Source: Ostreococcus lucimarinus
Taxonomy: Eukaryota
Assembly: GCA_000092065.1 (NCBI GenBank)
Contig: CP000588.1
Strand: one strand, 5' to 3'
Length of the DNA stretch: 64,000 nucleotides
Shown: positions 1 to 50,798 of the stretch, one piece after another
Position numbering within the stretch: position 1 is the first letter of the stretch
Layout of the letters: every line of letters starts with the position of its first letter
Translations under genes and position numbers: made by a program
Notes under the pieces: generated by a model
Databases searched by the model: none
What the model saw: the letters and a program-made list of their open reading frames with translations, nothing else
What the model was told of the DNA's origin: nothing

Positions 1-586
1 CGCGGGCGCCGTCTTCGCCTTTGCCTCTGGTAACGCTTCGCGGAGCGCCGCGAGCGCGCCGAACGGCGATGCGCGCGGCGCCGTCGCCTCGCGTCCGCGC
101 TCGACGCGCGCGTCGTCGTCGTCCGCGTCCTCGTCTCCCCGCTCGCTCGCGCGCCCGCGTCGTTTCGCGCGCGCGACGTTTCGTCGTCGTCGTCGTCTTC
201 GTCGTTCGGTTTCCGGAACCACCGCGCGCGCCGTCGTCGCGGCGCGCGCCGTCGTCGTCGCGACGCCGAGGCGCGGCATGCCTTCCCTCGCGCGTCCGCC
301 GTCGCCCGCGTCGTTTCGCGCGCGCGCGTGCGGCGTCGAGCGTCGTCGTCGTCGTCGGTCCGGTCGTTACGCCGGTCGACGGTCGACACACGACGACGCG
401 CCGGCGCTCGATGCAGGCGACGACGACGCGCGCGCGGGCGACGCCGCGATGCGGACGATCGACGACCGGAGGACGCGCGCGCGTCGACGCGCGCGCGTCG
501 ACGCGACGCGACGGCGCGGCGCGCGCGGGGGCGACGGCGCGCGCGCGGGTGTTTTTGAGCGGGACGACGACGACGACGACGACGAC

Positions 587-629
587 GGATGGTGCGCGCG
601 CGAGGCGACGGATGGTGCGCGCGCGAGGG
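587..629. repeat. Imperfect 23-bp tandem duplication (ggatggtgcgcgcgcgagg x2); each copy carries an ATG in frame with the bestrophin-like ORF
   Basis: Direct reading: 587-605 and 611-629 are near-identical and separated by cgacg. Confidence 0.5.
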
Positions 630-1892
630 AAAATTTCGGAAGACGATCAAGATGAAGACGACGGCGACGAAGAAGCGGGCGCGGGCGGCGTGGAGGGGTG
701 GCACGGGGCGTACAAACTTTGGAAACCAAAACCGAGGGGGGGCGTCGCGGACGCGGAGGCGGCGAAGCGATTGAAAGTGCGAGAGCTGTTGCTCAGTCGC
801 GACCCGGGTTTGAACCAGACGTTGATATCGTCCGGAACGAGCATATCGCAGTTGTTCGATCAGGATAAGTGGGAGCGTCATCGCATGGTGGATCGATTCG
901 TGGTCGATTTGGTGTCGATTCCCCAGAGCACGGTGTTCTTGCGCTTGTTCAGACCGTGCGCGGTGCTGGCGGCGTACACCGCCGTGGTCGTGGCATTTCC
1001 GAGCGTGTTGAAGTACGCGTGCGCGTATTTCAATTTGGCGTTACCGTTTCCGAACTTTGCCATGCAGTCTTTGACGCTGCCGGCGTCGGCGCACTCGTTA
1101 CTGGGCACGCTGTGCGGTTTGGTACTCGTGTTCCGAACAAACTCTAGCTATGCCCGCTTCGTAGACGGACGCACGGCGTGGGGGTCGCTCATCAAGCACG
1201 CGCGTGATGTGGCGCGCTTGGCGATATACATTCCCGACAAGAATCTGCAGAGACGGTTGCTAGAACTGACAACGGCGTACGCGTACGTGCTGAAGACGCG
1301 TTTGAGAAGCGGACGCACTCGGTCCGATCCCACGGATCCCACGGCGTTCCGAGACATTCCCGACGAAGCCGTCCGTCGATGCGTCACCGACCCCGCGCTC
1401 GCGGATGAGGTCTTAGCTTCCGCGAAGACGGGAAATCGGTGCTTGTACACGCTCATGCTCATCTCGAAGACGCTCAAGCTGGCGCTCGAGAAGGGGGCGC
1501 CGAGAGAAATTCATTGGAAGATTGAAGAGGCCGTGAGCGGTATGGGCTTATCTGGAGGTATTTGCGAGCGCATTGTCGCCACGCCGATCCCCCTGAGCTT
1601 CTCGCGTCACTCGGCACGATCGCTCATCATTTGGCTCATCACGCTCCCGTTCGTGCTCGTCCCGAGCATGTCTTGGATGTCCGTGCCCACCATCTTCACC
1701 TTGGCCTATCTCATCCTAGGCATCGACGAGATCGGGATCCAAATCGAAGAACCGTTCGCCACCTTACCCCTCACGCCGCTGTGCGCCACGATCGAGCGCG
1801 ACATGTCCATCGTCATCGCCGATATCTTCGCGAGCGACGACGCCGATCGCGTCGCTCGCGACGTCGTCGCCGGCGACGTCGTCGCGCGGTGA
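612..1892 (+). CDS. Bestrophin-like / UPF0187 family membrane protein (plant VCCN1-like anion channel homologue)
   Basis: The C-terminal two-thirds of ORF 21..1892 carry the family motifs 'FDQDKWERHR' and 'RTNSSYARFVDGRTAWG' plus several TM helices. Upstream of 612 the same frame is Arg-rich and looks like non-coding GC-rich sequence. ATG 612 is in frame; the true 5' end (612 versus 589, or an upstream exon) is uncertain. Confidence 0.7.
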   Translation: MVRARGKISEDDQDEDDGDEEAGAGGVEGWHGAYKLWKPKPRGGVADAEAAKRLKVRELLLSRDPGLNQTLISSGTSISQLFDQDKWERHRMVDRFVVDLVSIPQSTVFLRLFRPCAVLAAYTAVVVAFPSVLKYACAYFNLALPFPNFAMQSLTLPASAHSLLGTLCGLVLVFRTNSSYARFVDGRTAWGSLIKHARDVARLAIYIPDKNLQRRLLELTTAYAYVLKTRLRSGRTRSDPTDPTAFRDIPDEAVRRCVTDPALADEVLASAKTGNRCLYTLMLISKTLKLALEKGAPREIHWKIEEAVSGMGLSGGICERIVATPIPLSFSRHSARSLIIWLITLPFVLVPSMSWMSVPTIFTLAYLILGIDEIGIQIEEPFATLPLTPLCATIERDMSIVIADIFASDDADRVARDVVAGDVVAR

Positions 1893-2095
1893 CGCACCAC
1901 GCGTCCGTTCGCATCGCGCGCGCGCGCGTGTAACACAGTTTCGAGCGCATCACACCGTTTCGACCACCCCCCGCGCGCGTCGTCGTCTCCCTGATCCTTT
2001 TTCTTCCCGTCGGTTCGCGAATCCCGGCACCCCTCTTGAAACGGATTCCCCGAAAATCCACCGCGCCTCCACATCGCGTCGCGCTCGTCGACTCG

Positions 2096-5000
2096 ATGTC
2101 GCACCTCGAGCGCGCGCACGACGCGCGCGCGACCGCAGACACCGACGACGGCCGACGCGCGTCCTCTGATCCGAGTCCGTCGACGCAGAGCGCGTGGAAA
2201 CGCACCATCGCGTCGTGCGAGGTGCGATTTCCGTTGACGCCGTACAAGTCGCAGGTGCAAGTGATGAGCGCGGTCGTTCGAGCGGCGCGCCGAGGAACGT
2301 GCGCGCTCGTGGAGTCGCCGACGGGGAGCGGGAAGACGCTCGCGCTGCTGTGCGCGGCGCTGGCGTGGAGCGAGAGCGAGAGCGAACGCAGGGAAGACGT
2401 GGGCGTGGACGACGACGAAGACGGGGAGGAGGACGAAGCGCGCAAACGCGAGACGAAGAGAATCGGAAACGGTAAACCACCAAAGATTTATTACGCCACG
2501 CGCACGCACGCGCAGATCGCACAAATAGTCGGTGAATTGTCGAGGACGGCGTATAAGCCGCACACCGTGGTGTTGGCGTCGAGGGAGCATTATTGCGTGA
2601 ATAAGAGCGCGAGAAAGGGCGGAGACGTCAACGCGGAGTGTCGAAGGTTGATGGATGCCGGCGCCGCGGGTGGGGACGGGAAAGGGTGTTTTTATAGCGG
2701 ACAAGGGGCGAGTAAGTTGGCGTCGTTGGCGAAAAACCATCCCGACGCGCTGGATATCGAGGATTTGGTGAAGATGGGGACGTCGAAGAAGGGATGCCCG
2801 TACTTTGCGTCGAAAATCATGGCGGAGAGCGCGGAATTAATTTTCTGCCCGTACAACTATCTCTTGGATCCGCGCACGCGTTCGGCCATGGACATCGATA
2901 TCGAAGGTTCACTCATCATTTTCGATGAGGCGCACAACATCGAGGACACCGCGCGCGAGGCGGCGAGTGAGGAAATAATTTTAGACGACGTCGCGAACGC
3001 CATCGATCGTCTGAGCGAGATGCGGCGGCGCGCGACGGCAAACGTGAGCGAGTGCGAATTGGTGTTGAGGAGCATGAAGGGCGTTTACGATTGGTTCATT
3101 GGATTTTGCGACGAAAAAAGCCCAAGTTACGGTCTGAAGCAAGCGCAAGAAGCGTTATCGGCGATGGTTCGAGGGGAGCAGATTTTACAAACGTTGGCGG
3201 AAGCCGGGCTGACTGAAGAGAGCGTTTTAGAAGTCATGCGAGCGCTCGGCGTCATCACCAAGTATAATCAAGAGAACAAAGATCCGAAAGAGCGCGTCGC
3301 GGGCAGCGTTTTCAACACCTGTGAAAAAGTGCTGAATCCTATCAAGTTTTTGCTCTCGCGAGGCGAAGTCACCGCGCGCGATTACAAAATCGTCTTCACA
3401 AAGACGCGCGAAAGCGATCGAGTCGTTTCGACGCAACGAGTGAACTCTGAATTGAATAGATTACCCGTGGAAGAACTGGTGAAGATTAACTTTTGGGCAC
3501 TGAATCCAGCGCTGGCTTTCAGAGAGCTCGTGAGCGAAAACGGCGGCGCGCGTTCAGTCGTGCTCACGTCTGGTACTCTCGCGCCGCTCAATTCGTTCGC
3601 GAGCGAGCTCGGCGTACCGTTTCCCATCCGCATGGAAGCCCCGCACTGCGTGGATATGGATCGTCAGGTCTGGGGCGGCATCGTCGCCGCCGGTCCGAGC
3701 AACATAGCTTTGAATGCCGGTTACAAGTCTCGCGGCGATACTAGTTTTCAAGACGAACTCGGCGCGTGTTTGCGAGACGTCGCGAAAGTCACCCCTCACG
3801 GCTTGCTCATGTTCTTCCCATCGTACAGTCTTTTGGAAACCATCGTTCGACGATGGCGCGAAACGGGACTGCTGCGCGCGATAGAGCAGGCGAGCGGCAA
3901 GAAGATTTTTCAAGAACCGGGTAAATCATGCTCGTACGGTAAAAAACCGGTGACGCTTGAGACGGTGTTGGAAAAGTACTATTCCGCGGTGGCGACGAGC
4001 GTCAAGGCAGCAAAACATCCGTACGCTCCGGCTCCAGCGAACGCCAAATGTCGAGGTGCCATTCTCTTCGCCGTGTGTAGAGGCAAGATTAGTGAAGGTA
4101 TTGACTTCGCCGACGCTAACGCGCGGGCGGTGATCTGTGTTGGGATTCCGTATCCAAACATCAAAGACGCGCTCGTCGCGGCGAAGCGAAGTTACAACGA
4201 AGAAGGAGCGCATCGAGGTTTGCTGAGTGGCTCGAAATGGTACGATCAGCAGGCTTTTCGGGCGCTCAATCAAGCCGTCGGTCGATGCCTGCGGCATCGT
4301 CACGATCACGGCGCAATCATGCTCGTCGATTCGCGTTTCAACAACAGCAACATCCAGGCGCTGCCGAAATGGTTACGTCCCGCCATGCAGAAGAGCGCGT
4401 CTCGCTTTGGCGACCAAGTGAAAAGCTTGGAAAATTTCTTCGTTTCGCACGCCGAGAATCCACCGAGCGATGACGCTCCAGCGAGCAAGACAGGCGACCA
4501 ACGGAAGAATAGCAAACGAGCGAGAGTGTCCATCGTCGCGACGTCTCCTCGAAAGGCGATGCGTAATACGCCAATCACGAGCTTCTTTCAAAAGGCGTCG
4601 ACGAGCAACGCGACTCATTCAGATCCTCTCATGCGCGACATCGAGCAGCCATCGAAAAAGACAAAGGATGACCAAATCGGTGACTACGAGGCGCCAGTGT
4701 TCACGGACGACGACGAGCTTGACGTCGACATTGACGCGCTCATGGCGGACAACCATGAGTTATCGCCAGAGGCGAATGTCGCGCAAGTTCTCGACGGTGT
4801 CGAGTGGGAGGATTGGGAAGACGACGACGATCTAATGGCGCAAGCCGTGCAAGCGACACAAACCGCGCACACGATGAGTAAGGTAGAGAGCACGACACCG
4901 ACTGAACAAGTCCTGGATGTCGTCTCGCCTCTCAAGCAACGCGCGAAGAAAGTCTGCGGCGACGACTCCGTCTGCGCCAAGTGTGGAAACACTCGCTATT

Positions 5001-5299: not shown

Positions 5300-5810
5300 G
5301 ATAGATGACGTGATGTGTGATTCCAAAAAAGCCTCCACGAAACTCGGCACCACCCGGCGCGTCACAATTCGACGCACGACGCGCACGGCACCCCGTTCGC
5401 CGACGCCGCGAAGAACGCAAGCCGACGACACGCACGCGCGACACGTCTCCATGACCGCCACCACCCGCACCGCCCGCGCCGCGACGCCTAAAGTCGAGGA
5501 GAAAGTCGCGACGACGCGCAAAGTCGTCATTTCCGAGAAGGATGCCGAGACGACGACGACGACGGATGTCACGGCGACGACACCGGTCACGCCCGCGGTC
5601 GCGGTCGAGGACAGCGCGGTGAAGATCTCACGCGCGACGTCTCAAGAGCCCGAAGACGTCGAGGCGGAGATCGAACCGAACGCGAAACGCACCAAGGTTG
5701 ACTCGAGCGCGCAAAACGATTCCGATTTCGAATCGCCGGAGGACGCCGGCGCGTTCGTCGATTCCCAGGAAGACGGTGATTGGCAGCCCGAAGGGTCGGC
5801 GTCGGAGTGA
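5238..5810 (+). CDS. Hypothetical acidic, Thr/Ala-rich low-complexity ORF (or an alternative 3' exon of the upstream helicase)
   Basis: ATG-initiated 190-aa ORF overlapping the last 60 nt of the helicase ORF in another frame. Composition is acidic/TTTT, not the Arg-rich wrong-frame pattern, and there are no recognisable domains. Confidence 0.25.
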   Translation: MRCMHTCAIASCSGNTTPARRIDDVMCDSKKASTKLGTTRRVTIRRTTRTAPRSPTPRRTQADDTHARHVSMTATTRTARAATPKVEEKVATTRKVVISEKDAETTTTTDVTATTPVTPAVAVEDSAVKISRATSQEPEDVEAEIEPNAKRTKVDSSAQNDSDFESPEDAGAFVDSQEDGDWQPEGSASE

Positions 5811-16329: not shown

Positions 16330-17385
16330 ATGTCAACGGTTTCCCGTCCACACACGCAGCAGCGAAAGGTTTCGCGACGGCGACGGGTGATTCGACGGTT
16401 CGTCGCGCTGATCGCGGTTGCGTTCGTGTCGGCTACGGTGTTTGAGGGGGTGGTATTGTGGACGCACAAAGCGTTCGCGGCGCCTTGGACGTCTGCGGCG
16501 GCGTTCGCGGAGGAGTGGGCGGACATGCCGTTGAAGTGCCAACGACGGTTAGCAGGATCGTTGCCAGTAGACATGCCCACGCGGTCACGCTCGAGAACGT
16601 ACGTTGAGATGGGCCGAACGGCGCGTGAACGCGGAATCGAGGTGTTTGGCGCGAGAGACGGGAGGAGCGCGGCGACGCAAGGTTTGAGGCTCGACGATAT
16701 GTTTAAGATCGGCGTAGATGGAAAGATTTCCCCCAACCTAATGGTTCTCGAGGTACCGGTGCGTGCGATCGTGATTCCGTTTCCCGTGGGTGCCGTCAGT
16801 CAAATCCTACACCAAGGCACGGTGAAGCATCTGCGAAGGTTCGGCTTCGTGGATGAAACCAATGTGTACTTGCAGAACCCGGAAATGTTCCATTTCAGCG
16901 TATTTCACGCGTCGCATCATCTAGAAGAACACGCGGTGAGTGAGGTGGGCTTCCGGGAAGAGGTAAGTGCGATCAGGTCCGTGACGCGCAAGTTTTGTCC
17001 GATTCGCGCCGTGCTGGAGCGCGTGACAGTGACTAGCGGAGGCGTCGTCGTCGCCGGTTGGAACGTTGAACGCACGTCGTTGGGCGAACCGAGCGACTTA
17101 CGCGCGAGACTTCGCGAAGTGCTACCACGAGCACCGACGAAGCAGCTCGTCAGCGACGCTTTCATTCTTCACACCACCCTCGCGCGTTTGGTGCGACCAC
17201 CTGACGGCACTGTCGCTGAGACGCTTGCCGACGCCATGTCGCGCGATTTGACGGACGAGTTCTGCGGTTTAGAGCTCACCCTCGACCGAGCGTGGTTCGT
17301 GAGCGAGCATCATAAGCTCGCCTTAGCGTTGAAAGGAGCCGTCGATAAGTTAGACATGCCGTTCGATTGTCATAGCAGTGGTTAG
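16330..17385 (+). CDS. Hypothetical membrane-anchored protein with a 2H phosphoesterase-like double HxT/Sx motif
   Basis: N-terminal TM helix 'FVALIAVAFVSATVF'; 'HFSVF' and 'ILHTTLARL' resemble the two H-x-[TS]-x motifs of LigT/CPDase-type 2H enzymes. ATG at 16330. Confidence 0.6.
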   Translation: MSTVSRPHTQQRKVSRRRRVIRRFVALIAVAFVSATVFEGVVLWTHKAFAAPWTSAAAFAEEWADMPLKCQRRLAGSLPVDMPTRSRSRTYVEMGRTARERGIEVFGARDGRSAATQGLRLDDMFKIGVDGKISPNLMVLEVPVRAIVIPFPVGAVSQILHQGTVKHLRRFGFVDETNVYLQNPEMFHFSVFHASHHLEEHAVSEVGFREEVSAIRSVTRKFCPIRAVLERVTVTSGGVVVAGWNVERTSLGEPSDLRARLREVLPRAPTKQLVSDAFILHTTLARLVRPPDGTVAETLADAMSRDLTDEFCGLELTLDRAWFVSEHHKLALALKGAVDKLDMPFDCHSSG

Positions 17386-17477
17386 CTAGAAGTGCACCTC
17401 CCCGAGAGCGACAAAGTAATGGTCCCTGATTTCGTTGTTTTGACGCCAAAAGGAAACGTATAAGTTGATTTTGGGGT

Positions 17478-17891
17478 ATGGAAGGTCAGTCAGATTATGA
17501 TACGAATACAGTCCAGAAGAAGAAACTTTACGAGGAGTTTGATCTCGAACTCATCGATGTATGGCCAGCCAACCTCGATGATTTAGACGCCTATCAAGAA
17601 AACTGGCACAATACCGCGTTAGGACCGCGTTTTGAGCACATAGTCGCGATGAACTGTGCGGCGCTCCGTAAGAAATATACAAAGGCACTGTCATCAGGAA
17701 GCGACGACTTTCCCGTCTTTGTCACAATGTCTTTGTTACAACTACTGGCAGCAGTGGGCGCAGGGCTCTCGGTGTGGCTCTTGGCGTGGCTCCTGGCGTG
17801 GGGTATGCGACTAGTGATAAGGCGTGCTCGGACAAAGCATAGGAGAATGGGGTGGCGGAGACTCGAAGATGAGTTGGACACACAAATATAG
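17478..17891 (+). CDS. Hypothetical small protein with C-terminal TM helix, inside the low-GC island
   Basis: ATG-initiated 137-aa ORF with lower-GC codon usage, like the neighbouring scramblase. No homology recognised. Confidence 0.3.
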   Translation: MEGQSDYDTNTVQKKKLYEEFDLELIDVWPANLDDLDAYQENWHNTALGPRFEHIVAMNCAALRKKYTKALSSGSDDFPVFVTMSLLQLLAAVGAGLSVWLLAWLLAWGMRLVIRRARTKHRRMGWRRLEDELDTQI

Positions 17892-18401
17892 ATGGGTGAC
17901 GTGGCACAGTCGCGCGACATAGAATAACGATATTCTATATCTGCTTAATATTCTGCTTAAGATCTCGGCACTTTCGCTTAAGATCTCTTCAGAATGGAAT
18001 CTCTGAACGCAAGGCGTGGATGTACATTGAACCATGAACGAGGCGGGACGCTTTTTTGGATTACAAGTGTAGGTCTACTTTTACGTTTCGCGGACTCCGC
18101 TTGAGTCGGCCGATGTCACCATGTCAGGTGCTTCGAGTGCACTAGAGACGTGACCGCCGATACACAGGACGTCGAGCTCGGCGTGCCTGATTTCTTACTG
18201 GAAAAAGTACAGTTATTACAAAAGTTGTGTGGTGATTTTTTAGTTTCCGCTTTATATGTTTCGCTTGGCTGTTCCCTGATGATGCCGTTTAGGCGCGTTT
18301 GTGGTGACACCCTAGCTCTATCCTCGCTTTTCTGTATTTCATCAACTACGCAAAAGACACTCAGGCCGGAGTATACCAATATAACGGAGAATTTGCGGCC
18401 A

Positions 18402-19262
18402 TCACTGGCCTTCTTGCTCGAAAAGGGCGGCGTCGATGAGAAGCGCGGAACCGATGAGCGTCGATCGCATCGCCCTGTTCGACTTATCGGGCCAGTTGAC
18501 GCTGTAAACGTTCTTCTTGAAACAACACTCATTTTTGAACCCTGCCCAGAGGTCGGTGATGGCCGCTTCGCCGCCGTCGTGCGCCTCCATGGTCTCTGGG
18601 TCGCGAATGTAAAACGGCACACGGAAGCACTTGCCCTTGACGCCATCGAATTTACACTGCACGCAGCATCCACCGAAACACGTATTCGGGCGAATCATGT
18701 ACATGAGATTGTTCTGCGCGTCGAGTACTTTAAACTTGGGAACGAACAAGTGTAGGTCGCACATGTACTGCGTTCGCCCGAGCTTCGTGCCATTCGCGTC
18801 GAAGCTATCCATGTAAGGCAAACAGCAGCACATCGGACACCGCACGGCCCCGTCTTCGCTGCAACCTACAATGACATTCTGTCCGCACGTCTGATTCTTA
18901 CGATGCGTCAATACCGACTTACTATCGGGTGCCGTGCCGTGCTCGTCCTCCCACTCACGCCGATCCAACGTGCGATACGTGGTTGCCCGGCACCCAGGCG
19001 CCCAGCAGCTCCACGCGCGACCGCAATACCCGGCGTCTTCCTGAATCCAAAACTCCCCCTCTTGGAGCTGGTCGAAATCGATCTCCGCGCCTCTCGGGAC
19101 TTGATGCGCAATCGTCCAATGGATGTTCGGCTGGCACACGAAGCAGCGACAACACTCGTTGGTCTTTTGCTTGAGAAGGATCCCGTTCGAGTCGAGATGT
19201 TCGTCGAACGCGGACATTTGTTGCGCCGGAGGGGCAACGCATGCCATAGGAGAGGGTGCCAT
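18402..19262 (-). CDS. Phospholipid scramblase (PLSCR family)
   Basis: Cys-rich palmitoylation-like cluster 'CCRCFVCQP', a Ca-binding-like region and the C-terminal helix 'GSALLIDAALFEQ' (compare PLSCR 'GACFLIDFMFFE'). Track start 19379 is TTG; first ATG at 19262. The gene and its flanks are markedly lower in GC than the rest of the window. Confidence 0.8.
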   Translation of the reverse strand: MAPSPMACVAPPAQQMSAFDEHLDSNGILLKQKTNECCRCFVCQPNIHWTIAHQVPRGAEIDFDQLQEGEFWIQEDAGYCGRAWSCWAPGCRATTYRTLDRREWEDEHGTAPDSKSVLTHRKNQTCGQNVIVGCSEDGAVRCPMCCCLPYMDSFDANGTKLGRTQYMCDLHLFVPKFKVLDAQNNLMYMIRPNTCFGGCCVQCKFDGVKGKCFRVPFYIRDPETMEAHDGGEAAITDLWAGFKNECCFKKNVYSVNWPDKSNRAMRSTLIGSALLIDAALFEQEGQ

Positions 19263-19608
19263 CTCTATTGGAACGACTCGCGTTGTGACGGCGACGACGA
19301 CGCGATCTGCCCGCACGCAATTTAGGGTAAATCTGACGATAACTTTGCCCAAATTATCGTCAAAATTAAGGTCTGTCAATAACTTTTACTCGTCAATCCT
19401 TGAGTTAATTAGAGGGGGTCGAAGTTATGAAAAAGTTATGAAAATTGACTCTTAGTCGTTTACGCATAACTCGGGGCATAAAGTTATCAAAACGCTTTAC
19501 TCTTAGTCCAATAACGATAACTTTGCCATTAAAGTCGTAGTTATCGTCAAAGTTATCTACGTTAGTCGGCCTTAGAAAACAAAAGACATCTTTGATTAAA
19601 AGTCTTCT
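19263..19608. promoter_or_regulatory. AT-rich intergenic region with about 9 copies of GATAACTT/AAGTTATC (GATA-type) motifs and other short direct repeats; scramblase promoter and UTP15 3' UTR
   Basis: Direct reading: acgataactttgcc x2, ttatcgtcaaa x3, aagttatgaaaa x2, ctcttagtc x2; GC about 38% against a window background of about 67%. Confidence 0.4.
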
Positions 19609-21276
19609 CTACAGTCCTTGTCCCGTTATCGTCAAAGCCATCCCTTGTAACTGCGTCAATGCTTCGTGTAGTCGCAGTTGCGCTTTGATTTTCAACTGGA
19701 TTCTACGCAATGCGTTGTCCACAGCCGAACTCGCGCCGACGTCGCCACCGTACAAGTCGACGATTCGGTTCGCAATGTTCACCATCTGCGCCGTGTGGCG
19801 CGGCTTGGAGATATTTTTCTCTATATACTCCAAAATCGGAAGCAGCGACTGGTCGTCGCGGTTGGCGAGTGCCTTCTGAAGCCCCCCTCTTCGACCGACT
19901 TCTTCTATGACTGCGGCGACAACTTCCGCCCTACCCACGTGCAACGCCGCGTCCAGGGCGTCTCCGTATCTAAATTGTTTCAACATTCGATCGTGCGCGG
20001 CCAAGTGCACACGTCGTCGACGAAGCACTCGCGTGGCGTCTGCCGCCGCTTTAGAGTTTTGACCTCGAATAAAGTACCGCCAATGACTCGCATCCAGTCG
20101 TCGAGGTTTCTTCACCGTGAAGCCCTTCTTTTTACTTCGAACGCCTTGATACCCCGAAGGGTCGTCACTGTTACGAGGTTTCGTTCGTCTGCGAACGCTC
20201 AATACTTTATTGGCTAGTCCAGTGGCAAGGCAGTTCGCGTCTGGCGAGAGCGAGCACGTCAGCACGGGTCCAGGGTACTTGATCGAGTGCGTCACGGTGA
20301 AAGTGTCGAGTTCGTGAATCTTGACGAAGCCGTCCAAGGAGCCGGTGATCATGCGAGGCGCGTTTGATTCGAGCGCGCTTTCGCTACCGATCTCATATCC
20401 AGATGCGAACGATGGCGGGCCCGCGTCCGGGTGCACGTGCACGGTGGTGATGGTCTTCTGGTGACTGCGCAACCGACGAAGCAACCGGCCGCCGCCGATG
20501 GCGTCCCACACGCACACGTCCTCGCCACCGACGGAGACGAGCAAGTTTCCGTTGGGATACCACGCGACATCTTCCACGGGCGAACCATGATCGAGCGTCA
20601 TCACCGCCTCGCGTCCTTGTCTAGCGTCCCAAATTTTCACCGTGTGGTCGTACGACCCGCTCGCCCACATCTCTTGAGAAACCGTACTCCGCTCGAGCGC
20701 TCGAACGTAATCCGTGTGCCCATCGTGCCTTCGCACGCAATTCCCAGTGGAAATATCCCATATTCGCACCGTCGCGTCGTCGCTCGCCGACCCTAAGTGC
20801 AGCTTATCCGCGCTCCATCGCACCGCGCGAACCGCCGCGGAGTGCGTCGTAAACTTTCTCAAAACCGCTCGCGACCCGCAATCAAACAACTGCACCACCC
20901 CAGCCTGTCCTCCGACCGCCAGCGCCTTCCCATCGTCTCTCAGCACACCACTGTACGCCACGTCCTTAAATCGCGCGAACGTCCTCAATTTTCTCGCTCC
21001 GCTCGGCGCGTACAGCGTCACCCTCGCCCCGCTCGTCGCCGCCAACGCGCCGCGTTCGCCCCCCGACGACCCCGCGCCTCCGTACGACACGCTCGTCACC
21101 GCGTTCACCTGTTCGCTCAGCGCGGTGGATTTATATTCTCGCCAGTACCTTCCCTCGCCCGTCTCTCGCTTCGCTCGCGCGGCGTAGCGTTTGATTGGAA
21201 GTTTTCGGTACTCGCCCAAACCGGCGGCGAAGAATCCTCCCGCGTCGCCGCGCGCGTTGTGCTCGCGCGCGTCCAT
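19609..21276 (-). CDS. UTP15: U3 snoRNP protein UTP15 (WD40 repeats plus UTP15_C domain)
   Basis: 'RFKDVAYSGVLRDDGKALAVGG…VQLFD', 'GSYDHTVKIWDAR', 'YFIRGQN' and a C-terminal helical domain match UTP15. In-frame ATG at 21276 (MDAREHN) preferred over the Arg-rich 5' extension. Confidence 0.85.
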   Translation of the reverse strand: MDAREHNARGDAGGFFAAGLGEYRKLPIKRYAARAKRETGEGRYWREYKSTALSEQVNAVTSVSYGGAGSSGGERGALAATSGARVTLYAPSGARKLRTFARFKDVAYSGVLRDDGKALAVGGQAGVVQLFDCGSRAVLRKFTTHSAAVRAVRWSADKLHLGSASDDATVRIWDISTGNCVRRHDGHTDYVRALERSTVSQEMWASGSYDHTVKIWDARQGREAVMTLDHGSPVEDVAWYPNGNLLVSVGGEDVCVWDAIGGGRLLRRLRSHQKTITTVHVHPDAGPPSFASGYEIGSESALESNAPRMITGSLDGFVKIHELDTFTVTHSIKYPGPVLTCSLSPDANCLATGLANKVLSVRRRTKPRNSDDPSGYQGVRSKKKGFTVKKPRRLDASHWRYFIRGQNSKAAADATRVLRRRRVHLAAHDRMLKQFRYGDALDAALHVGRAEVVAAVIEEVGRRGGLQKALANRDDQSLLPILEYIEKNISKPRHTAQMVNIANRIVDLYGGDVGASSAVDNALRRIQLKIKAQLRLHEALTQLQGMALTITGQGL

Positions 21277-21517
21277 GTTCGCGCCTCGCGATCGATCGCG
21301 CGCCTTCGCGTCGACGCTCGCGCGCGCGCACCGTCGCGAGGTCGCGCTCGACGCTCGCGCGCGCGCGTCGCTCTCTGGGGCGGCGGCGGCGGCGCCAGTC
21401 CGCGACGCATCGCGCATGCGCATCGCGCGCGTCGCTCACCGCGCGCTTCGTCTCGCCCGCGGACGCGCGATTCGGCGCGAGCGCGACTCGCCGGTCGCGC
21501 GCGCGCGATCGCGCGCG

Positions 21518-26338: not shown

Positions 26339-28060
26339 ATGGCGGCTCTTCCGGCGTTCGAACTGCCGACGGTGGCGCGAGACGACGATGGGTTCGGGCC
26401 GCCGCGGAAGGGATTGGTGACGAGCGAGATCACGGAGATGATCTACGCGCCGTATAACAAGACGGATAAGTTTGGGAGGTGCGCGGATTGGATGGGGGAC
26501 GAGCGGGACGGGCACGGGCGCGAGCGGGACGGCGAGGGACGGGAGAGACGAGGGGATAAACAGAGAGACGAACGACGGGAGAGGAAGGATCGGGAGCGAG
26601 AGGGGAAGGGGAAAGACGCGAGCGCGTCCGCGGGTGGGATTGGAGGCGTGGAGACGGTGTTTAATTTCGTCGCCGACGCGGGGGAGGAGGAGAGTTTCAG
26701 TTTGGTGGATAACACGAACGCGCGGTCGAGCGGTGGCGGCGGTGGACGCGGTGGACGCGGTGGCGGACGTTGGAACCAGTTCGGTGGGCGCGGTCGCGGT
26801 CGCGGGAACATGGACGAGGCGGCGCGAGATCTCGGGGTCGGGGCGGAGCGCGAACGCAACCGCCAGGCGCGCATTCAGTCGAGAAAGGCGCAGCAGTGGA
26901 ACACGTGGGCGTACAACAGGCAGCAGCAGCAGGTGCATTACAGCGCGTCCGTGGATATTCGTCCGGATTGGGAAGTCGTGGAACAAATCGCGTTCCCGGA
27001 AATCATCAAGCAGTCCTTGGAGCTCGCCGAGGCGGCGCCAGAGGACTTGGCGACGTACGGCTCTGTGCGTTGGTTCGATAAGTCGTACGATCGCGTGACG
27101 CCCAAGTCCGAAGTACTCCTGCGAAGACGCACGGAAGAACCGCCGCGTAACGTCACGGCGAGCGAAGATCCGATCATTCAGAAGTACGCCGCCGAGGGTA
27201 CGGGCAACGTGTTCACCACCGACGGCGTCTTGGCCGCCGTCATGTGCGCCGCGCGCTCCAACTACTCTTGGGACATCGTCATCAAGAAGAAGGACGGCAA
27301 GATCTTCCTCGACAAGCGCCCCGATGGTAACTTTGATCAGCTCACCGTGTCCGAAACCGCGCAAGAGCCGATTCCGGACGATCCGGAAGACATCAATGGC
27401 GTTCAACAGCTCTCCGCCGAGGGTACCAAGGCGAACCGAGCCTTTGTCGAACAATCGCTCACCGTCGAAAAGGATGCGTACAAGTTCGGTGAACCCGTGC
27501 CTTTCTTCGGCGAAGACGATAACGACTCAATCGCGTATAAGTACCGCAAATGGAACGTCGACGACACCACCAAGCTCGTGTGCCGATGCGAATTGAACGC
27601 CGTGAGCGAATCCAAGGGCATGGACAAGGGCAAAGCGCTGACCACGCTCGTGAAGGCTTTGAACGAATTCGATTCCAAGGTCACAGGGATTGACTGGAGA
27701 CTCAAGATCGAGACGCAGCGCGGTGCGGTGGTTGCCAACGAGCTCAAGAACAACGCGAATAAGCTCGCCAAGTGGACCGCGATGGCCGTGCTCGCCGGCG
27801 CCGAACAAATGAAGCTCGGTTTCGTGTCGCGCGTGCACCCGCGCGATCCGAACGCGCACGCGATCCTGAACACGCAAACGTACAATACGAAGGACTTTGC
27901 ACAGCAAATCAACATCAAGGAAGCGAACATGTGGGGTTCGCTCAAGCTGTTCCTCGATACGTGCCGCAAGTTTGAAGACGGCTCGTACATTTGCGTCAAG
28001 GATCCGTTGAAGAACATCCTTAGATTTTACAAGTACGAGGAGAGTGCGAGCATGTTCTAA
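26339..28060 (+). CDS. EIF3D: Translation initiation factor eIF3 subunit D
   Basis: N-terminal 'FELPTV…GFGPP', a long RG/acidic insert, and strong similarity to the eIF3d core across the remainder (e.g. 'WDIVIKKKDGKIFLDKR'). Confidence 0.9.
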   Translation: MAALPAFELPTVARDDDGFGPPRKGLVTSEITEMIYAPYNKTDKFGRCADWMGDERDGHGRERDGEGRERRGDKQRDERRERKDREREGKGKDASASAGGIGGVETVFNFVADAGEEESFSLVDNTNARSSGGGGGRGGRGGGRWNQFGGRGRGRGNMDEAARDLGVGAERERNRQARIQSRKAQQWNTWAYNRQQQQVHYSASVDIRPDWEVVEQIAFPEIIKQSLELAEAAPEDLATYGSVRWFDKSYDRVTPKSEVLLRRRTEEPPRNVTASEDPIIQKYAAEGTGNVFTTDGVLAAVMCAARSNYSWDIVIKKKDGKIFLDKRPDGNFDQLTVSETAQEPIPDDPEDINGVQQLSAEGTKANRAFVEQSLTVEKDAYKFGEPVPFFGEDDNDSIAYKYRKWNVDDTTKLVCRCELNAVSESKGMDKGKALTTLVKALNEFDSKVTGIDWRLKIETQRGAVVANELKNNANKLAKWTAMAVLAGAEQMKLGFVSRVHPRDPNAHAILNTQTYNTKDFAQQINIKEANMWGSLKLFLDTCRKFEDGSYICVKDPLKNILRFYKYEESASMF

Positions 28061-28122
28061 ACGTGCTAGCTTTCTAATTACGTCTTAGTAGTCAACGACC
28101 GTTGTGATTGAATGAATCTTCT

Positions 28123-32971: not shown

Positions 32972-33006
<35 letters not shown>

Positions 33007-33228: not shown

Positions 33229-34746
33229 ATGAGCGACGCGCGCGCGCGCGACGACGCCGCCGACGACGCGCGCGCGGCGTCGTCGTCGACGAAACCGACG
33301 AACGCGACGGAATTCTTCGCCAATCTGCGCGAATCGTCGAACGAGTCGGCGCGGTACGAGCTCGAGGAAGTCATCGGAAAGGGGAGCTACGGCGTCGTGT
33401 GCGCGGCGATCGATCGACAGACGGGGAACAGGGTCGCGATAAAGAAGGTCAAGAACGCGTTCGATCACGCGAGCGACGCGACGCGGATCCTGCGAGAGGT
33501 GACGCTGTTGCGACACCTGAAGCACCCCGACATTGTGGAGGTGTTGAACATCATGTTGCCGCCGAACCCGAGGGATTTTAACGATGTCTTCATCGTGTTC
33601 GAGCTCATGGAGACGGATTTGCATCAAGTCATCAAGGCGAACGATGACTTGACGGACGAACACTATCAGTTCTTCTTGTATCAACTGTTGCGCGGGTTGA
33701 AGTACATGCACAGCGCCAACGTCTTTCACAGAGACTTGAAGCCGAAGAATATTTTGGCCAACAGCGACTGTAAGCTCAAGATTTGTGATTTTGGCTTGGC
33801 GCGGGCGATGACCGCTAAAGCTGGACCGCAGATGATATTCTGGACCGACTACGTCGCGACGAGATGGTACCGCGCGCCAGAGTTGTGCGGGAGTTTCTTC
33901 ACCAAGTACACGCCGGCGATCGATATTTGGGGCGTCGGGTGCATTTTCGCCGAACTCTTGCGAGGGAAGCCGCTGTTTCCGGGTAAAAACGTTGTGAAGC
34001 AGTTAGAAATCATCACAGATCTACTCGGGACGCCGACGCCGCTGCAAATCGCCAAGGTTCGCAATGAAAAGGCGAGACGGTTTTTACAAAACATGCGTAT
34101 CAAACCCGCGGTGCCGCTATCGGAGAAATTCCCTGGCGTCGACCCCAAGGCGCTGAACTTGCTTAGTAAATTATTAGCATTTGATCCGGACGATCGCCCC
34201 ACCGCCGCGCAGGCGCTGGCAGATCCGTACTTTGACGGTTTAGCGGACGTCTCGCGAGAGCCGGCGCGACGACCGTTGCCGAAGGATGAATTTGATTGGG
34301 ACTCTCGGAAGCTGTCTCGCGAAGAAGTTCGCGAGCTTCTGTACAAGGAGATTCTACACTATCATCCGCAGGCCAAGCGCGAGTACGAGGGCAACGAAAA
34401 GAAGAGTGGGTTTGACTATCCGAGCGGCGTTTCGGACATGGCGCATAAGTTCAATTCGCTCGAGCAGGGCGGTCCCGAGACGCGTTTCCAAACTTCCAAG
34501 TCCCTTCCCAAGCACGCACTGGGCGCTTATCGCGAAGAAGCACAGCGATTCGCCGGCGGCGTCCACGCTCTGGCGCGCTCGGACAGCGCCAAACCGGGCG
34601 CGTCGCCAAGCGCCATGGACGCCGCGGACGACGACTTTGATTTGGCCGACGTCGTCCAAGCAATGTCGCTCGACGCCAAAGAAGCCGACGCCATCGCGAA
34701 GGAGGCGGAAGCTCTATTGGCCAGCGGACACGAGATCGCCATGTGA
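33229..34746 (+). CDS. Mitogen-activated protein kinase, TDY-type (plant group D-like) with C-terminal extension
   Basis: 'GKGSYGVVCAA', 'HRDLKPKN', 'DFGLAR', activation loop 'TDYVATRWYRAPE', common-docking-like region. ATG at 33229. Confidence 0.9.
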   Translation: MSDARARDDAADDARAASSSTKPTNATEFFANLRESSNESARYELEEVIGKGSYGVVCAAIDRQTGNRVAIKKVKNAFDHASDATRILREVTLLRHLKHPDIVEVLNIMLPPNPRDFNDVFIVFELMETDLHQVIKANDDLTDEHYQFFLYQLLRGLKYMHSANVFHRDLKPKNILANSDCKLKICDFGLARAMTAKAGPQMIFWTDYVATRWYRAPELCGSFFTKYTPAIDIWGVGCIFAELLRGKPLFPGKNVVKQLEIITDLLGTPTPLQIAKVRNEKARRFLQNMRIKPAVPLSEKFPGVDPKALNLLSKLLAFDPDDRPTAAQALADPYFDGLADVSREPARRPLPKDEFDWDSRKLSREEVRELLYKEILHYHPQAKREYEGNEKKSGFDYPSGVSDMAHKFNSLEQGGPETRFQTSKSLPKHALGAYREEAQRFAGGVHALARSDSAKPGASPSAMDAADDDFDLADVVQAMSLDAKEADAIAKEAEALLASGHEIAM

Positions 34747-35476: not shown

Positions 35477-37122
35477 CTAGGCCTTCGCCTTCTTGGCGGA
35501 CTTTTCTTTCTTGTCCTTCTTTTCCTTCTTGGACTTCTTCGGAGTCGCCGTCGCAGAGTCGGTCGCCTTTCGCTTGCCGCCGCCGCCCGCCTGCGGGCCG
35601 ATCTCGGCGATCACCTCTTGCATCATGGCGATATTCTTACGCGGTGCCGTGCCCTTGTCGTAAAATGCCAATCGCTCTTCGACTTGATCCTTCAACTTTT
35701 CGCCGAACAAGGTGGTTTGGAAGTCGCTAAAGCAGTCAATTCTGCTTGCGATGCTACACTTGTTGGCTAAGTATCGAGAAATTCTCCCCTTGTTTCGCGC
35801 GTTCGCCTTGCCGATGAACGTGCTGTGGAAAATCAAACCGTACTTGGGCGTGTTCCCCTTGGTCTTCAGCGCGCGGAAGAGCGCTTTTTCGGCGCCGAGA
35901 ATTTGCACCGTCGACGCCGGGTACTTGGCTAAGTTCGTGAGCGAACCGGCGTGCGAAATCAAACGCGCGGCGATAATGTCACCGATCAACGCGCCCAGGT
36001 TCGGGGCCACCTGCCAGTACGATAAAACGATAAAAATGGTCAGTGTCTTCGTTCGGGTTGTTTTGATGAAAAATTTCCGCGTCGACGTTGTTCCCCACAG
36101 ACGCGAGTCAGAGTGGTGCATGAATTGTTTCAACAAGGTAATTCAGATCAGGTCTGTGATTGGTGTATCATAATCATCAACCCCACGAACTGCGAGAGAA
36201 TCATTGGCGATTGATCGGTACGAGCGTTCGTCGCGCGCTTCGAAATACTTACCACACTCATCTTGTTGTTCAAGTAGTTGTGAAGACTGGTTCGGTACTC
36301 GGCGAGGGAAATGACGCGCTTGGCGAAGGACTCAATGTTGATCATGTCCACCGGTGAGATGTCTTGACCCATCGACGCTTTGGCTGCCTCGATCACTTCT
36401 TTAGCCTTGTCCTCGTCCCCGGTGATTTCCTTCAACGCCGGCATCGCCTCATCGGTGAGCGTCGCCTTGTCCTTGATCACGAGCGCCAGTCTCGCGTACA
36501 TGTAGTTGTCGTTGACGACTTTGACGAGCTCGGGAAAGTGCCAACCGTACCATTCGCGCACGCGCATGATGAAGGTGTTGATGTCCTTATCGAGCGTGTC
36601 GATCAGCGCGATGGCCTGGATGATCATGTTATCCGATCGGTTCACGTTGAACTTGACCTTGGCGCGAGAGTACGAGTGCGCCAAGCCGAGTTGCGCCTTT
36701 TCGTAGTCGCCACCCTTGAAACCCTTGACAAACTTTGTGAAATACGCGCGAATGCCCCGAATAATCTCACCGACGTGATCGTTGCACACGCACGGAATCT
36801 TCGTCGTCTCCACGATCGAGTTCCCGAGCTTGGAGTCCGCGACGCCGAGCTGAAACTTGGCCTTTTTAGAATCCTTCAACTTTGGCAAGTTTTGCTCTAA
36901 AAAGTTTTGCAAATCCTCCGAGGCCACGCCCTCGGACACGCAATTAATCTGCTCCAGCGCGTTCGCCGCCGACGTAAACGGTTTAAACCCGTGCAATTTC
37001 ACAACCTTCCCGAACTTATCCGCGCTCTGCGTCGTCTCCTGCACCTTCTCCAGCGCCTGTCCCACGACGTCCAAATCCAGCGTCTCGAACAACCCGTACC
37101 CCGACGAGGACTCGAACAGCAC
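35477..37122 (-). CDS. NOP56: Nucleolar box C/D snoRNP protein NOP56; two exons resolved (join 36253..37122, 35477..36010), initiator ATG not found
   Basis: Exon A: '[12 protein letters not shown]', '[43 protein letters not shown]', then …KMSV followed by a GTAAGT donor. Exon B: acceptor cag then '[10 protein letters not shown]…AGSLTNLAK…[18 protein letters not shown]' and a KKD-rich tail. The track 'M' at 37122 is GTG; the frame is closed by a stop 7 codons upstream with an acceptor-like 'gcgaacag|GCGCAG', so a tiny 5' exon is inferred. Confidence 0.85.
36100..36186 (-). ncRNA. Candidate intronic box C/D snoRNA inside the NOP56 intron
   Basis: On the gene's sense strand: TGATGA (C box, plus-strand 36174-36179), two internal CTGA (36144-36151), then a terminal CTGA (36108-36111) about 65 nt downstream. 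No convincing terminal stem, so the call is weak. Confidence 0.2.
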
Positions 37123-48849: not shown

Positions 48850-49191
48850 GCGAAATATTCACGACTCCTCGCGCGCGTTCAAGTAGCACAAAGTAGGACA
48901 TAGCGTTAGCACGACATGTAGTGGCGCACGCGTAGACGAGTCGCGATGAAAAGACTCTTTTATTGATGTTTCGTCATTTTCATTAAAACACGTCGCGTCG
49001 TTTCTCGTAAATCGTGAACGACCGACCTCGAACCCGCCCATTCGAGTGGCTATAAGATACTCCCCTCTACCGGTTGATACATGTGATGTGAATATATACC
49101 GTCGCGTCGTCGTGACGTCGCTGATAACTCATACACTCTTGCCTCGCTCTCGCTAAAATCATAGAATAACTTCCTCATATGCCCGTTACGC

Positions 49192-50798
49192 TTAGAAGTC
49201 TTCGTCGAGGGAGAACGCGTTCGCGTTGCCACCCCCGATAGAGTTCATGACACCCGCCTTCTGGTATTCGCCGACGCGCTTCTCGAAGAAGTTCGTCTTA
49301 CCTTGAAGAGAGATGAGTTCCATCCAATCAAACGGATTCGTCGTGTTGTACTCCTTGGCCAAGCCCAAAGAGCAGAACAAGTGATCGGCGACGTATTCAA
49401 TGTAGTCGCTCATCATGCCGGCGTTCATGCCCACGAGCGCGCACGGAAGAGAGTCGCACACGAACTCCTTCTCGATTTCAACAGCCTCGGTGACAATCTT
49501 GCGAATGGTTTCTTCGCTCGGCTTGTTGTTCAACATGCTGAACAACAAGCACGCGAAATCGCGGTGCAAACCTTCGTCACGAGAAATGAGCTCGTTGGAG
49601 AAGGTCAAGCCCGGCATCAAGCCACGCTTCTTGAGCCAGTAGATGGAGCAGAAAGAACCAGAGAAGAAGATGCCTTCAATGCACGCGAACGCCAAGAGAC
49701 GCTCGGCAAACGAGTCGCTCGAGTCGATCCACTTCAACGCCCAGTCAGCCTTCTTCTTCACGCACGGGATGGTATCGATGGCACGGAACAGGTGGTCCTT
49801 TTCCACCGGATCCTTGATGTACTGATCGATCAACAAAGAATACATTTCTGCGAACGATGAAGAAAGCGTTTTGAGTCAGTCGGTTTGAATTCGAGAGCGT
49901 TTGCGCGCGCGAGGTGGAAATTCCTTCTCCAATCGCAAGAATCGAGCGCATCTCTCGACGTACCGGAGTGAATGTTCTCGATGGCGATTTGGAAGCCATA
50001 GAACGCGCGGGCTTCCGGAATCTGAACCTCGCCCATGAAACGAACGCCGAGGTTTTCGAGCACGATGCCGTCCGAGGCGGCGAAGAACGCAAGCACGTGC
50101 GAGACAAAGTGCTTCTCATCCTTCGTGAGCGTCTCCCAGTGCTTCATGTCGTCCGACAGATCGACTTCCTCCGCTGTTTGCGCACAAAAGCACGCGCGAT
50201 CGCGTCGATGTACCGTTAGTCACGCGTCCCGTTCGCCCTTCGCTCTCTCGCGCGCCGCGCGATTTCAAACTTTGCGCAGCGTTCGACGTGACGTCACCCC
50301 ACGCGCTCGTTCGCGCACGCACCGGTCCAGAAAGACGCCTCAGCCTTCTTATACATCTCCCACACCTGCGGGTACTGAATCGGGAACATCGTGAACCTGC
50401 GAGCGACCGCGAAACGCGCGCGAAACCTCCGTCAGTGTCTTTTTCAACTAAACGACTCGAAAATCATCCACGACGTCATCTTCCCCAACCTCCCACACCA
50501 CCCGCGCCTCGCGCGCGCCGTCGCCCGCGCCGACGCGCGCGTCGAAATCCCTCACGCAGTCTTCGCCCCCCGAACCGCGCCATCGCGCGTCGCGCGCGCG
50601 TCCAGCCCCGCGAAACGATTCCCGGCACCGGCGCGATTTCAAATTCGAACGTTGCGCCCCATCGTTCGCGCGTCCCTCACCGCGCGCGCGCGCGTCCATC
50701 GACGCCGTCGCGCGCGCGCACGCGTCGCGAATATTTTTCTTCACGCACCGTTGGTCGTTTTCATCGAGCAAAGGCTCGGCGAGCGGGAGAGGCGACAT
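49192..50798 (-). CDS. RNR2: Ribonucleotide reductase small subunit (R2), 4 exons: join(50746..50798, 50323..50396, 49964..50173, 49192..49847)
   Basis: Exon 1 '[17 protein letters not shown]' + GTGCGT donor; exon 2 '[24 protein letters not shown]' + GTGCGT; exon 3 '[38 protein letters not shown]…[11 protein letters not shown]' + GTACGT; exon 4 '[11 protein letters not shown]…' to stop. All junctions keep frame (330 aa). Confidence 0.85.

Follow-up and report, generated by a model that had tools for sequence, protein, structure and literature searches.

A young, polymorphic insertion in the picoalga Ostreococcus lucimarinus, probably a patchwork of protease, scramblase and transposon sequences

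Transposons of the PIF/Harbinger type, together with the Tourist-type miniature inverted-repeat transposable elements (MITEs), are known from maize (PIF) and rice (Pong/mPing), and Harbinger-type transposase domains have been reported on the outlier chromosomes of Ostreococcus (bioRxiv 10.64898/2026.02.10.705097, 10.64898/2026.07.10.737489). Other described systems that bear on this study are the templated filler DNA (patchwork insertions) left by break repair, the deletions that arise beside transposons after abortive excision, the small outlier chromosome of Ostreococcus, and the PLSCR family of scramblases (PF03803), of which human PLSCR1 is the type member. Here we describe a low-GC island that lies between the gene for UTP15 (a U3 snoRNP protein) and a conserved 351-aa open reading frame (ORF) in a 64-kb stretch of DNA (hereafter, the window) of O. 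lucimarinus CCE9901, and that contains a phospholipid scramblase gene. Sister and wild sequences were taken from marine metagenome contigs (L-numbers). The island resembles the small outlier chromosome in its low GC, its transposon and gene fragments, and its presence or absence among wild genomes, but it differs in being located within a housekeeping region of 62.6% GC on a chromosome contig of 701,771 bp. Very probably it is a 2.2-kb patchwork, composed of the 3' end of a protease gene, an intact scramblase unit and the remnant of a PIF/Harbinger element, that was introduced into a 42-bp spacer between convergent genes on a standard chromosome.

Many marine metagenome contigs repeat the gene order of the window, with the island included. 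In the contigs with an empty site (L019-L026), the homologue of the 351-aa ORF and the UTP15 gene lie tail to tail with 42 bp between them, and the sequence at this position is ...CAGTGGTTAG TACTT TTAGAAAAC..., that is, CAGTGG TTAG TACTT TTAGAAAAC. In the window, the island begins immediately after the TAG stop codon of the 351-aa ORF (host TTAG, 17382-17385), and the host sequence TTAGAAAAC resumes at 19572. The sequence TTAG TACTT recurs after the island in the least-deleted haplotypes (L004, L176 and L165), and TTAG is found at both junctions in H1b and L165. Over 4.4 kb on either side of the site, substitutions between carriers and empties amount to only 0.2-0.3% (0.05-0.18% within each group); these are haplotypes of a single species. 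The insertion at TTAG is young, and part of the wild O. lucimarinus genomes have it. Lower diversity within the island was considered as a sign of a selective sweep and rejected, because carriers are as uniform in the adjacent flanks (0.02-0.18%) as they are in the island (0.15%).

A sequence-only reading of the window had drawn attention to this region as a low-GC island against a background of about 67% GC, holding a PLSCR-family gene with less GC-biased codon usage, together with clustered motifs and short repeats. The island itself is evident, since GC averages 50.0% across 17390-19610 and the two most extensive runs of 200-bp windows with less than 48% GC fall there, but the background is 62.6%. 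By part, the values are 50% for the small ORF (17478-17891), 46.7% for the spacer that follows it (17892-18401), 56.9% for the scramblase coding sequence (CDS; 18402-19262) and 39% for the flank at 19263-19608, while long intergenic regions elsewhere in the window have 61-74% GC and only short gene spacers of 51-108 bp reach 39-45%. The family assignment is borne out by a match of the scramblase CDS to Pfam PF03803 (31 bits, cut-off 25.4; residues 137-283 aligned to profile positions 94-221). The codon usage claim did not survive measurement, as the GC content at third codon positions (GC3) is 0.71, compared with 0.75 +/- 0.05 in 28 long ORFs of the window, and the lower total GC of the gene comes from the first and second codon positions; the small ORF alone is atypical (GC3 of 0.55). 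The scramblase coding sequence is compositionally native. The motif clustering in both orientations was correctly seen, and the repeats ttatcgtcaaa (three copies), aagttatgaaaa (two) and gcttaagatctc (two) are all real, except that the third ttatcgtcaaa (19625) lies in the coding sequence of UTP15 and not in the flank. Elsewhere in the 64 kb, GC drops below 48% in 200-bp windows only at 27901-28100, which corresponds to a 62-bp spacer between long ORFs, 33601-33800, 36001-36300 and 48901-49200.

The predicted scramblase (286 aa) is identical to XP_001419266.1 (UniRef100_A4S0Y0, named 'Phospholipid scramblase'), so the gene was already annotated in the reference genome. Like other PLSCR proteins it has cysteine-rich stretches and a Pfam match in its C-terminal half, but it aligns to a limited part of the profile and its N-terminal half is unusually cysteine-rich. 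Three relatives (P0003, P0012 and P0021) also score above the PF03803 cut-off. The C-terminal hydrophobic segment, LIGSALLIDAALFEQ, may resemble the tail of PLSCR1. No sequence match to the scramblase was found among solved structures, and a literature search found no paper mentioning Ostreococcus together with scramblase. The proteins of the window and of L007 are separated by four nonsynonymous and no synonymous differences (18406-18407, 18455 and 18860), which include G134S and the last residue.

The scramblase CDS is part of a 904-bp unit that recurs at a second locus, between BipA and a gene for an AD-domain protein, in contigs L001, L002, L014-L017, L028-L032 and L177-L186. Genes for Pex2, a nucleotide-sugar transferase, an acetyltransferase and Lon belong to the same block, and the window contains none of these genes. 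Similarity between the window and the BipA-AD copies extends exactly from 18391 to 19294 in every case (BLAST, 91-97.8% identity). The synonymous divergence (dS) between the two loci is 0.03-0.05, and homologous flanks, if they existed, would therefore still align; the ratio of nonsynonymous to synonymous divergence (dN/dS) is 0.5-0.8. Since the reading frame is intact in every copy, the scramblase of the window is probably still functional, and in CCE9901 its promoter context, from 61 bp upstream of the ATG, would consist of transposon DNA. The BipA-AD position shows presence and absence as well: it holds the scramblase in 10 of 10 contigs with the AD allele P0185, and the gene is cleanly absent from L011-L013, of which L012 provides a clean empty allele. 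Contig L027 keeps a 70-nt internal piece and 100 bp of the upstream part of the unit (4140-4674). This remnant sits amid local duplications, with the AD ORF extended to 254 aa, in a long-read assembly, so that part of it may be error.

These copies could also be understood if the 904-bp unit were a discrete mobile cassette with a defined 3' end, moving between loci by an unrecognised mechanism, with the rest of the island being debris. Its similarity boundaries are identical and sharp in every comparison, the 3' boundary is also the boundary of the insertion at BipA-AD when compared with the empty allele of L012, a hairpin (GGCCA-GTGA-TGGCC) spans the scramblase stop codon at this end, and both loci show presence and absence. 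In addition, L015 and L028 have identical cassettes in spite of flanks that differ by about 2%. We nevertheless regard a cassette as improbable. The unit encodes the scramblase alone, has been seen at two loci in all, and lacks inverted repeats, a consistent target duplication, a poly(A) tail and Helitron-type TC...CTRR ends; the insertion at BipA-AD has 85 extra bp on its 5' side that are missing from the window, and L027 demonstrates that a messy deletion can yield absence at BipA-AD. The L015 and L028 units, which have no coding differences, may hint at exchange or conversion between lineages. Two specific routes were considered and rejected. For a processed retrogene, the unit ends ...GCCGCAAAT and is followed at both loci by unrelated sequence, with no A-run. 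For capture by a Helitron, the minus-strand end of the island is CTAG, but the island has neither a TC start nor a subterminal hairpin, and it is not inserted between A and T.

At the other end of the island, the small ORF is, judging from protein alignments, a chimera built on a 3'-end fragment of a membrane-anchored aspartyl protease gene, with the C-terminal two thirds copied. Its last ~93 residues are near-identical to P0149, and its protease homologues (74-81% overall identity) carry the PF00026 Asp and PF14541 TAXi_C domains, while no relative was found for the first 56 aa outside the ORF's own family. A G-to-T change at 17889, specific to the window, introduces an early stop, giving 137 aa compared with 149 aa (end at 17927) in other carriers; all six aligned carriers differ from the window at this position. 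The chimeric ORF is probably non-functional.

The third component is the motif array next to UTP15. The sequence ATAACTT/AAGTTAT occurs seven times between 19339 and 19556, with about 1.1 copies expected in the whole window, and the array has four copies of the exact 8-mer GATAACTT, in both orientations. When the 249-bp array was shuffled with its dinucleotides preserved, the mean was 0.12 copies of ATAACTT/AAGTTAT, and none of 2000 shuffles reached seven. A tandem-repeat or minisatellite was rejected, as Tandem Repeats Finder detects only an 11-bp doublet (AAGTTATGAAA) and the motifs are dispersed. A 33-mer from the array retrieved five metagenome contigs (L162-L166), and in L166 a distance of 3 kb separates the two halves of the array, which lie at either end of a 3,375-bp element (99-3473) that has 18-nt inverted repeats, GGCCGACTAAGAGTAACG. 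The element carries two ORFs, of 410 and 548 aa. The longer matches PF04827 Plant_tran (4e-24) and PF13359 DDE_Tnp_4 (8e-16), and this transposase is also encoded by L163; many relatives of it are present in marine metagenomes. The 410-aa ORF lies in the place expected for the second ORF and has no Pfam match at E <= 0.01. All 12 copies of ATAACTT in L166 fall within ~240 bp of the left end or 160 bp of the right end, and these ends have 38-41% GC compared with 56% in the interior. Complete, short MITE-like derivatives with both ends are found in L162 and L164. The right end is followed by TTA or TAA in L003 and L162-L166, and the elements of L166 and L162 are flanked by TAA on the left and TTA on the right. 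From these comparisons, the ATAACTT/GATAAC repeats, in both orientations, are best described as transposon subterminal repeats, at which the element's own proteins presumably bind.

The L166 element agrees with PIF/Harbinger transposons in its DDE transposase, second ORF, inverted repeats beginning GGCC, TAA/TTA flanks, TTAG-type insertion sites, AT-rich ends with short repeats in both orientations, and the existence of internally deleted short derivatives. It differs in that the two complete copies show no matching direct repeat at their flanks, and its second ORF has no detectable Myb/SANT domain. The copy in the window is far less complete. It consists of a TAGG junction filler (19323-19326), a left subterminal region (19327-19454) and a right subterminal region (19422-19571), and lacks the first 98 bp (with the left inverted repeat), 2.99 kb of interior and 6 bp of the right inverted repeat, which is cut to ...CGTTAGTCGGCC (19560-19571) and followed by TTA (19572-19574), the presumed copy of the target site. 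With the left junction, left inverted repeat and interior lost, this copy is a dead relic and not an intact element or MITE, and it could not be mobile as a MITE. It also differs from the reported copies in being on a standard, rather than an outlier, chromosome. The low GC of the island has three sources, namely the transposon ends, an unconstrained spacer and a decaying gene fragment.

A probable history of the site can be drawn from the carriers. In most of them, the stretch corresponding to 19322-19572 is occupied by an unrelated sequence of 188 bp (240 bp in L004 and L176). Contig L165 (H4) has the same island and the first ~40 bp of the 188-bp sequence, and then an element with a different left truncation, more of the interior and an intact right junction. 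The deletions in the window (H2) and in L165 both start from the left end of the element and, because they differ, they look like independent one-sided deletions of a shared precursor with an element at TTA. The common H1a haplotypes have a deletion of ~52 bp at the same TTA, with junctions that vary (AAAAG/AAC, AAAAGTA/AC and AAAAGTA/GATA/AC, slashes marking the joins), which would be the expected trace of excision followed by resection. In L003, which has the only transposase-bearing copy at this site, the UTP15 flank runs through the array's right half into the beginning of a transposase gene; it may be the precursor, or a misassembly through the 150-bp repeat.

The pieces of the patchwork are copies of sequences living elsewhere in Ostreococcus genomes, and a transposon very probably landed at the TTA on the UTP15 side of the island and then lost its left inverted repeat and interior. 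We propose that the site is a hotspot of double-strand breaks made by transposase, and that repair of these breaks by copying ectopic templates could have produced both the patchwork and the later one-sided deletions. The island resembles templated filler DNA in that, at the target site of a transposon, several short segments from unrelated loci meet with 0-4 bp of microhomology at their joins, and the site resembles those with deletions after abortive excision in its independent one-sided deletions from the end of an element. It differs from filler DNA in the unusual presence, among the captured segments, of a whole gene that appears to be functional; the repair origin is inferred.

Several observations weigh against this proposal. 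The polarity of the insertion would follow from a comparison among haplotypes of one species, and L003 is a possible chimera. The ends of the island have no inverted repeats and no similarity to Harbinger ends, and there is no sign of transposase-mediated capture; Helitron ends were likewise tried, and no similarity was found. That the 3' end of the unit falls precisely where the insertion at BipA-AD ends would not be expected from break repair, and it hints at a discrete mobile unit. No donor locus was identified inside CCE9901; the BipA-AD copies come from metagenome lineages, and no CCE9901 accession was found among the proteins of those lineages. These copies differ from the window by 2-4.5% (up to 9% in L002, a long-read assembly), compared with the 0.2-0.3% between carrier and empty flanks. 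Finally, the between-locus dN/dS, which derives from small counts, is weak evidence of constraint.

Alternatively, the island could be ancestral and the empty haplotypes precise deletions between two copies of TTAG, a 4-bp direct repeat at both ends that could mediate such an event. Deletions are plainly frequent at this site, and the island is present in 10 of 10 long contigs that have the most frequent UTP15 allele. We think this history unlikely, as the components of the island were copied from sequences resident elsewhere, and the empty allele provides the compact 42-bp tail-to-tail spacer that is typical of this genome. In the sister lineages, moreover, the BipA-AD position spans flanks that are 2-5% apart, suggesting that it is the older position. 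There is likewise little to recommend a broader scenario in which the scramblase is a roving accessory gene, its 904-bp cassette moved or captured by breaks due to active Harbinger elements and kept polymorphic by selection from prasinovirus infection, a connection drawn because scramblases control the exposure of lipids at the cell surface.

Among the explanations offered by the sequence-only reading, recent acquisition agrees with the absence of the whole island from haplotypes with near-identical flanks, while neither of the two causes it suggested is supported by what was found. One was that the array is a host cis-regulatory module, with GATA-factor or I-box sites, controlling the scramblase gene. 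GATAA does occur in the motifs, which are located 61-310 bp upstream of the ATG, and transposon ends can be co-opted as promoters. However, at unrelated sites this sequence makes up the ends of MITEs and of an element that encodes a transposase, and carriers L004-L010 and L167-L176 have the same gene with unrelated upstream sequence and no motif. As most carriers have the unrelated 188-bp sequence there, the array is not a fixed part of the scramblase upstream region. The motif is all but missing from intergenic regions elsewhere in the window (three copies in the other 63.8 kb), and we consider regulation of this kind very unlikely. Least probable of all is the transfer of the scramblase and its AT-rich flanks from a prasinovirus or other foreign genome, since, despite the low GC of the flanks and nearest non-Ostreococcus relatives (41-55% identity) whose named members are from a cryptophyte and a dinoflagellate and not from green algae (a word-seeded search with mostly unnamed hits, and so weak evidence of phyletic pattern), no relative of the scramblase was confirmed by tblastn in IMG/VR (protein-pattern scan) or matched by tblastn in 50,697 GenBank phage records, exact and gapped motif scans of IMG/VR with the array yielded nothing beyond chance seeds in AT-rich contigs, without extended similarity, GC3 is host-typical, the nearest copies are at another nuclear locus of sister Ostreococcus, and a resident transposon family and a host gene fragment account for the flanks.

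Table 1. Coordinates of the island, its components and its neighbours in the window.
Feature	Position	Strand	Description
Whole island	17386..19571	.	2,186-bp insertion relative to the empty allele; alignment to empty contigs breaks at 17385 and resumes at 19572 (BLAST)
904-bp duplicated unit	18391..19294	-	Scramblase CDS (18402-19262) with 32 nt upstream and 11 nt downstream
Motif array	19323..19571	.	PIF/Harbinger relic, by similarity; 95% identity to L166 197-325, 93% to L166 3317-3476
Chimeric small ORF (137 aa)	17478..17891	+	~17646-17927 appears copied from the linker, transmembrane helix and tail of an aspartyl protease paralogue
AT-rich spacer	17892..18390	.	46.7% GC; short local repeats; matches only the same island among fetched loci
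28-bp stretch directly upstream of the 904-bp unit	19295..19322	-	Common to all island carriers; absent from BipA-AD copies
Left host neighbour, conserved 351-aa ORF	16330..17385	+	No Pfam match; stop codon lies within the TTAG insertion site
Right host neighbour, UTP15 (U3 snoRNP protein)	19609..21423	-	Pfam PF09384 UTP15_C; 3' end toward the island

The positions of these features are given in Table 1. The local repeats of the AT-rich spacer are GCTTAAGATCTC, at 17955 and 17976, and TCTGCTTAAKAT, which also occurs twice. An Rfam search of 17000-20000 gave no match near the gathering score, and no tRNA was found anywhere in the window. The UTP15 of the window is the same as O. lucimarinus XP_001419267.1 at 514 of 514 aligned residues. 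That reference protein is partial and skips 17 residues (VHVHPDAGPPSFASGYE); as these are in frame and the ORF of the window is uninterrupted, the annotated intron may be spurious. In the metagenome contigs, the gene calls for UTP15 give a protein of 555 aa, with a start ATG downstream of that of the 604-aa ORF. Runs of the trinucleotide GTC/GAC (CGTCGTCGTC...) are found at many sites in the window, mostly within ORFs (e.g., 32975-33002, 58603-58625 and 565-586).

Some features of the other loci were also noted. At the BipA locus, the AD-domain gene and its flank form an inverted duplicate on both sides of the Nucleotid_trans-Pex2-BipA block (L011, 1-954 and 7535-8488), and among the contigs this block is found in both orientations relative to Acetyltransferase-Lon (L001 compared with L012), which together suggest an inversion polymorphism mediated by the inverted repeats. 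A repeat of ~172 bp (88% identity) is shared by two intergenic regions of the same locus (L012, 4136-4306 and 7617-7788, inverted; L028, 3501-3670 and 7982-8152), and one copy begins ~10 bp from the scramblase insertion point; a link to the island was rejected, as the window has no copy. In L162, copies of the array at 40-102 and 5564-5747 (of which one is a complete MITE of ~175 bp) lie on either side of a 5.5-kb segment with genes for a group-1 glycosyltransferase and a UDP-GlcNAc 2-epimerase, content of the type described for the small outlier chromosome.

Each component of the island is a known kind of event, and the locus should be of modest interest to researchers of the Mamiellophyceae. 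It explains a compositional anomaly in the genome of a reference picoalga by ordinary genome dynamics rather than by viral transfer or special regulation. It also provides a case of a complete scramblase gene residing at different loci in closely related lineages. No effect of its variable presence on the outcome of infection is demonstrated here but, if such an effect existed, the locus would offer a tractable natural polymorphism. The PIF/Harbinger family and its MITE derivatives appear to have been recently active in wild populations of O. lucimarinus type, and young presence/absence variants, made up of gene copies and transposon debris, are carried by standard, gene-dense chromosomes as well as by the outliers.

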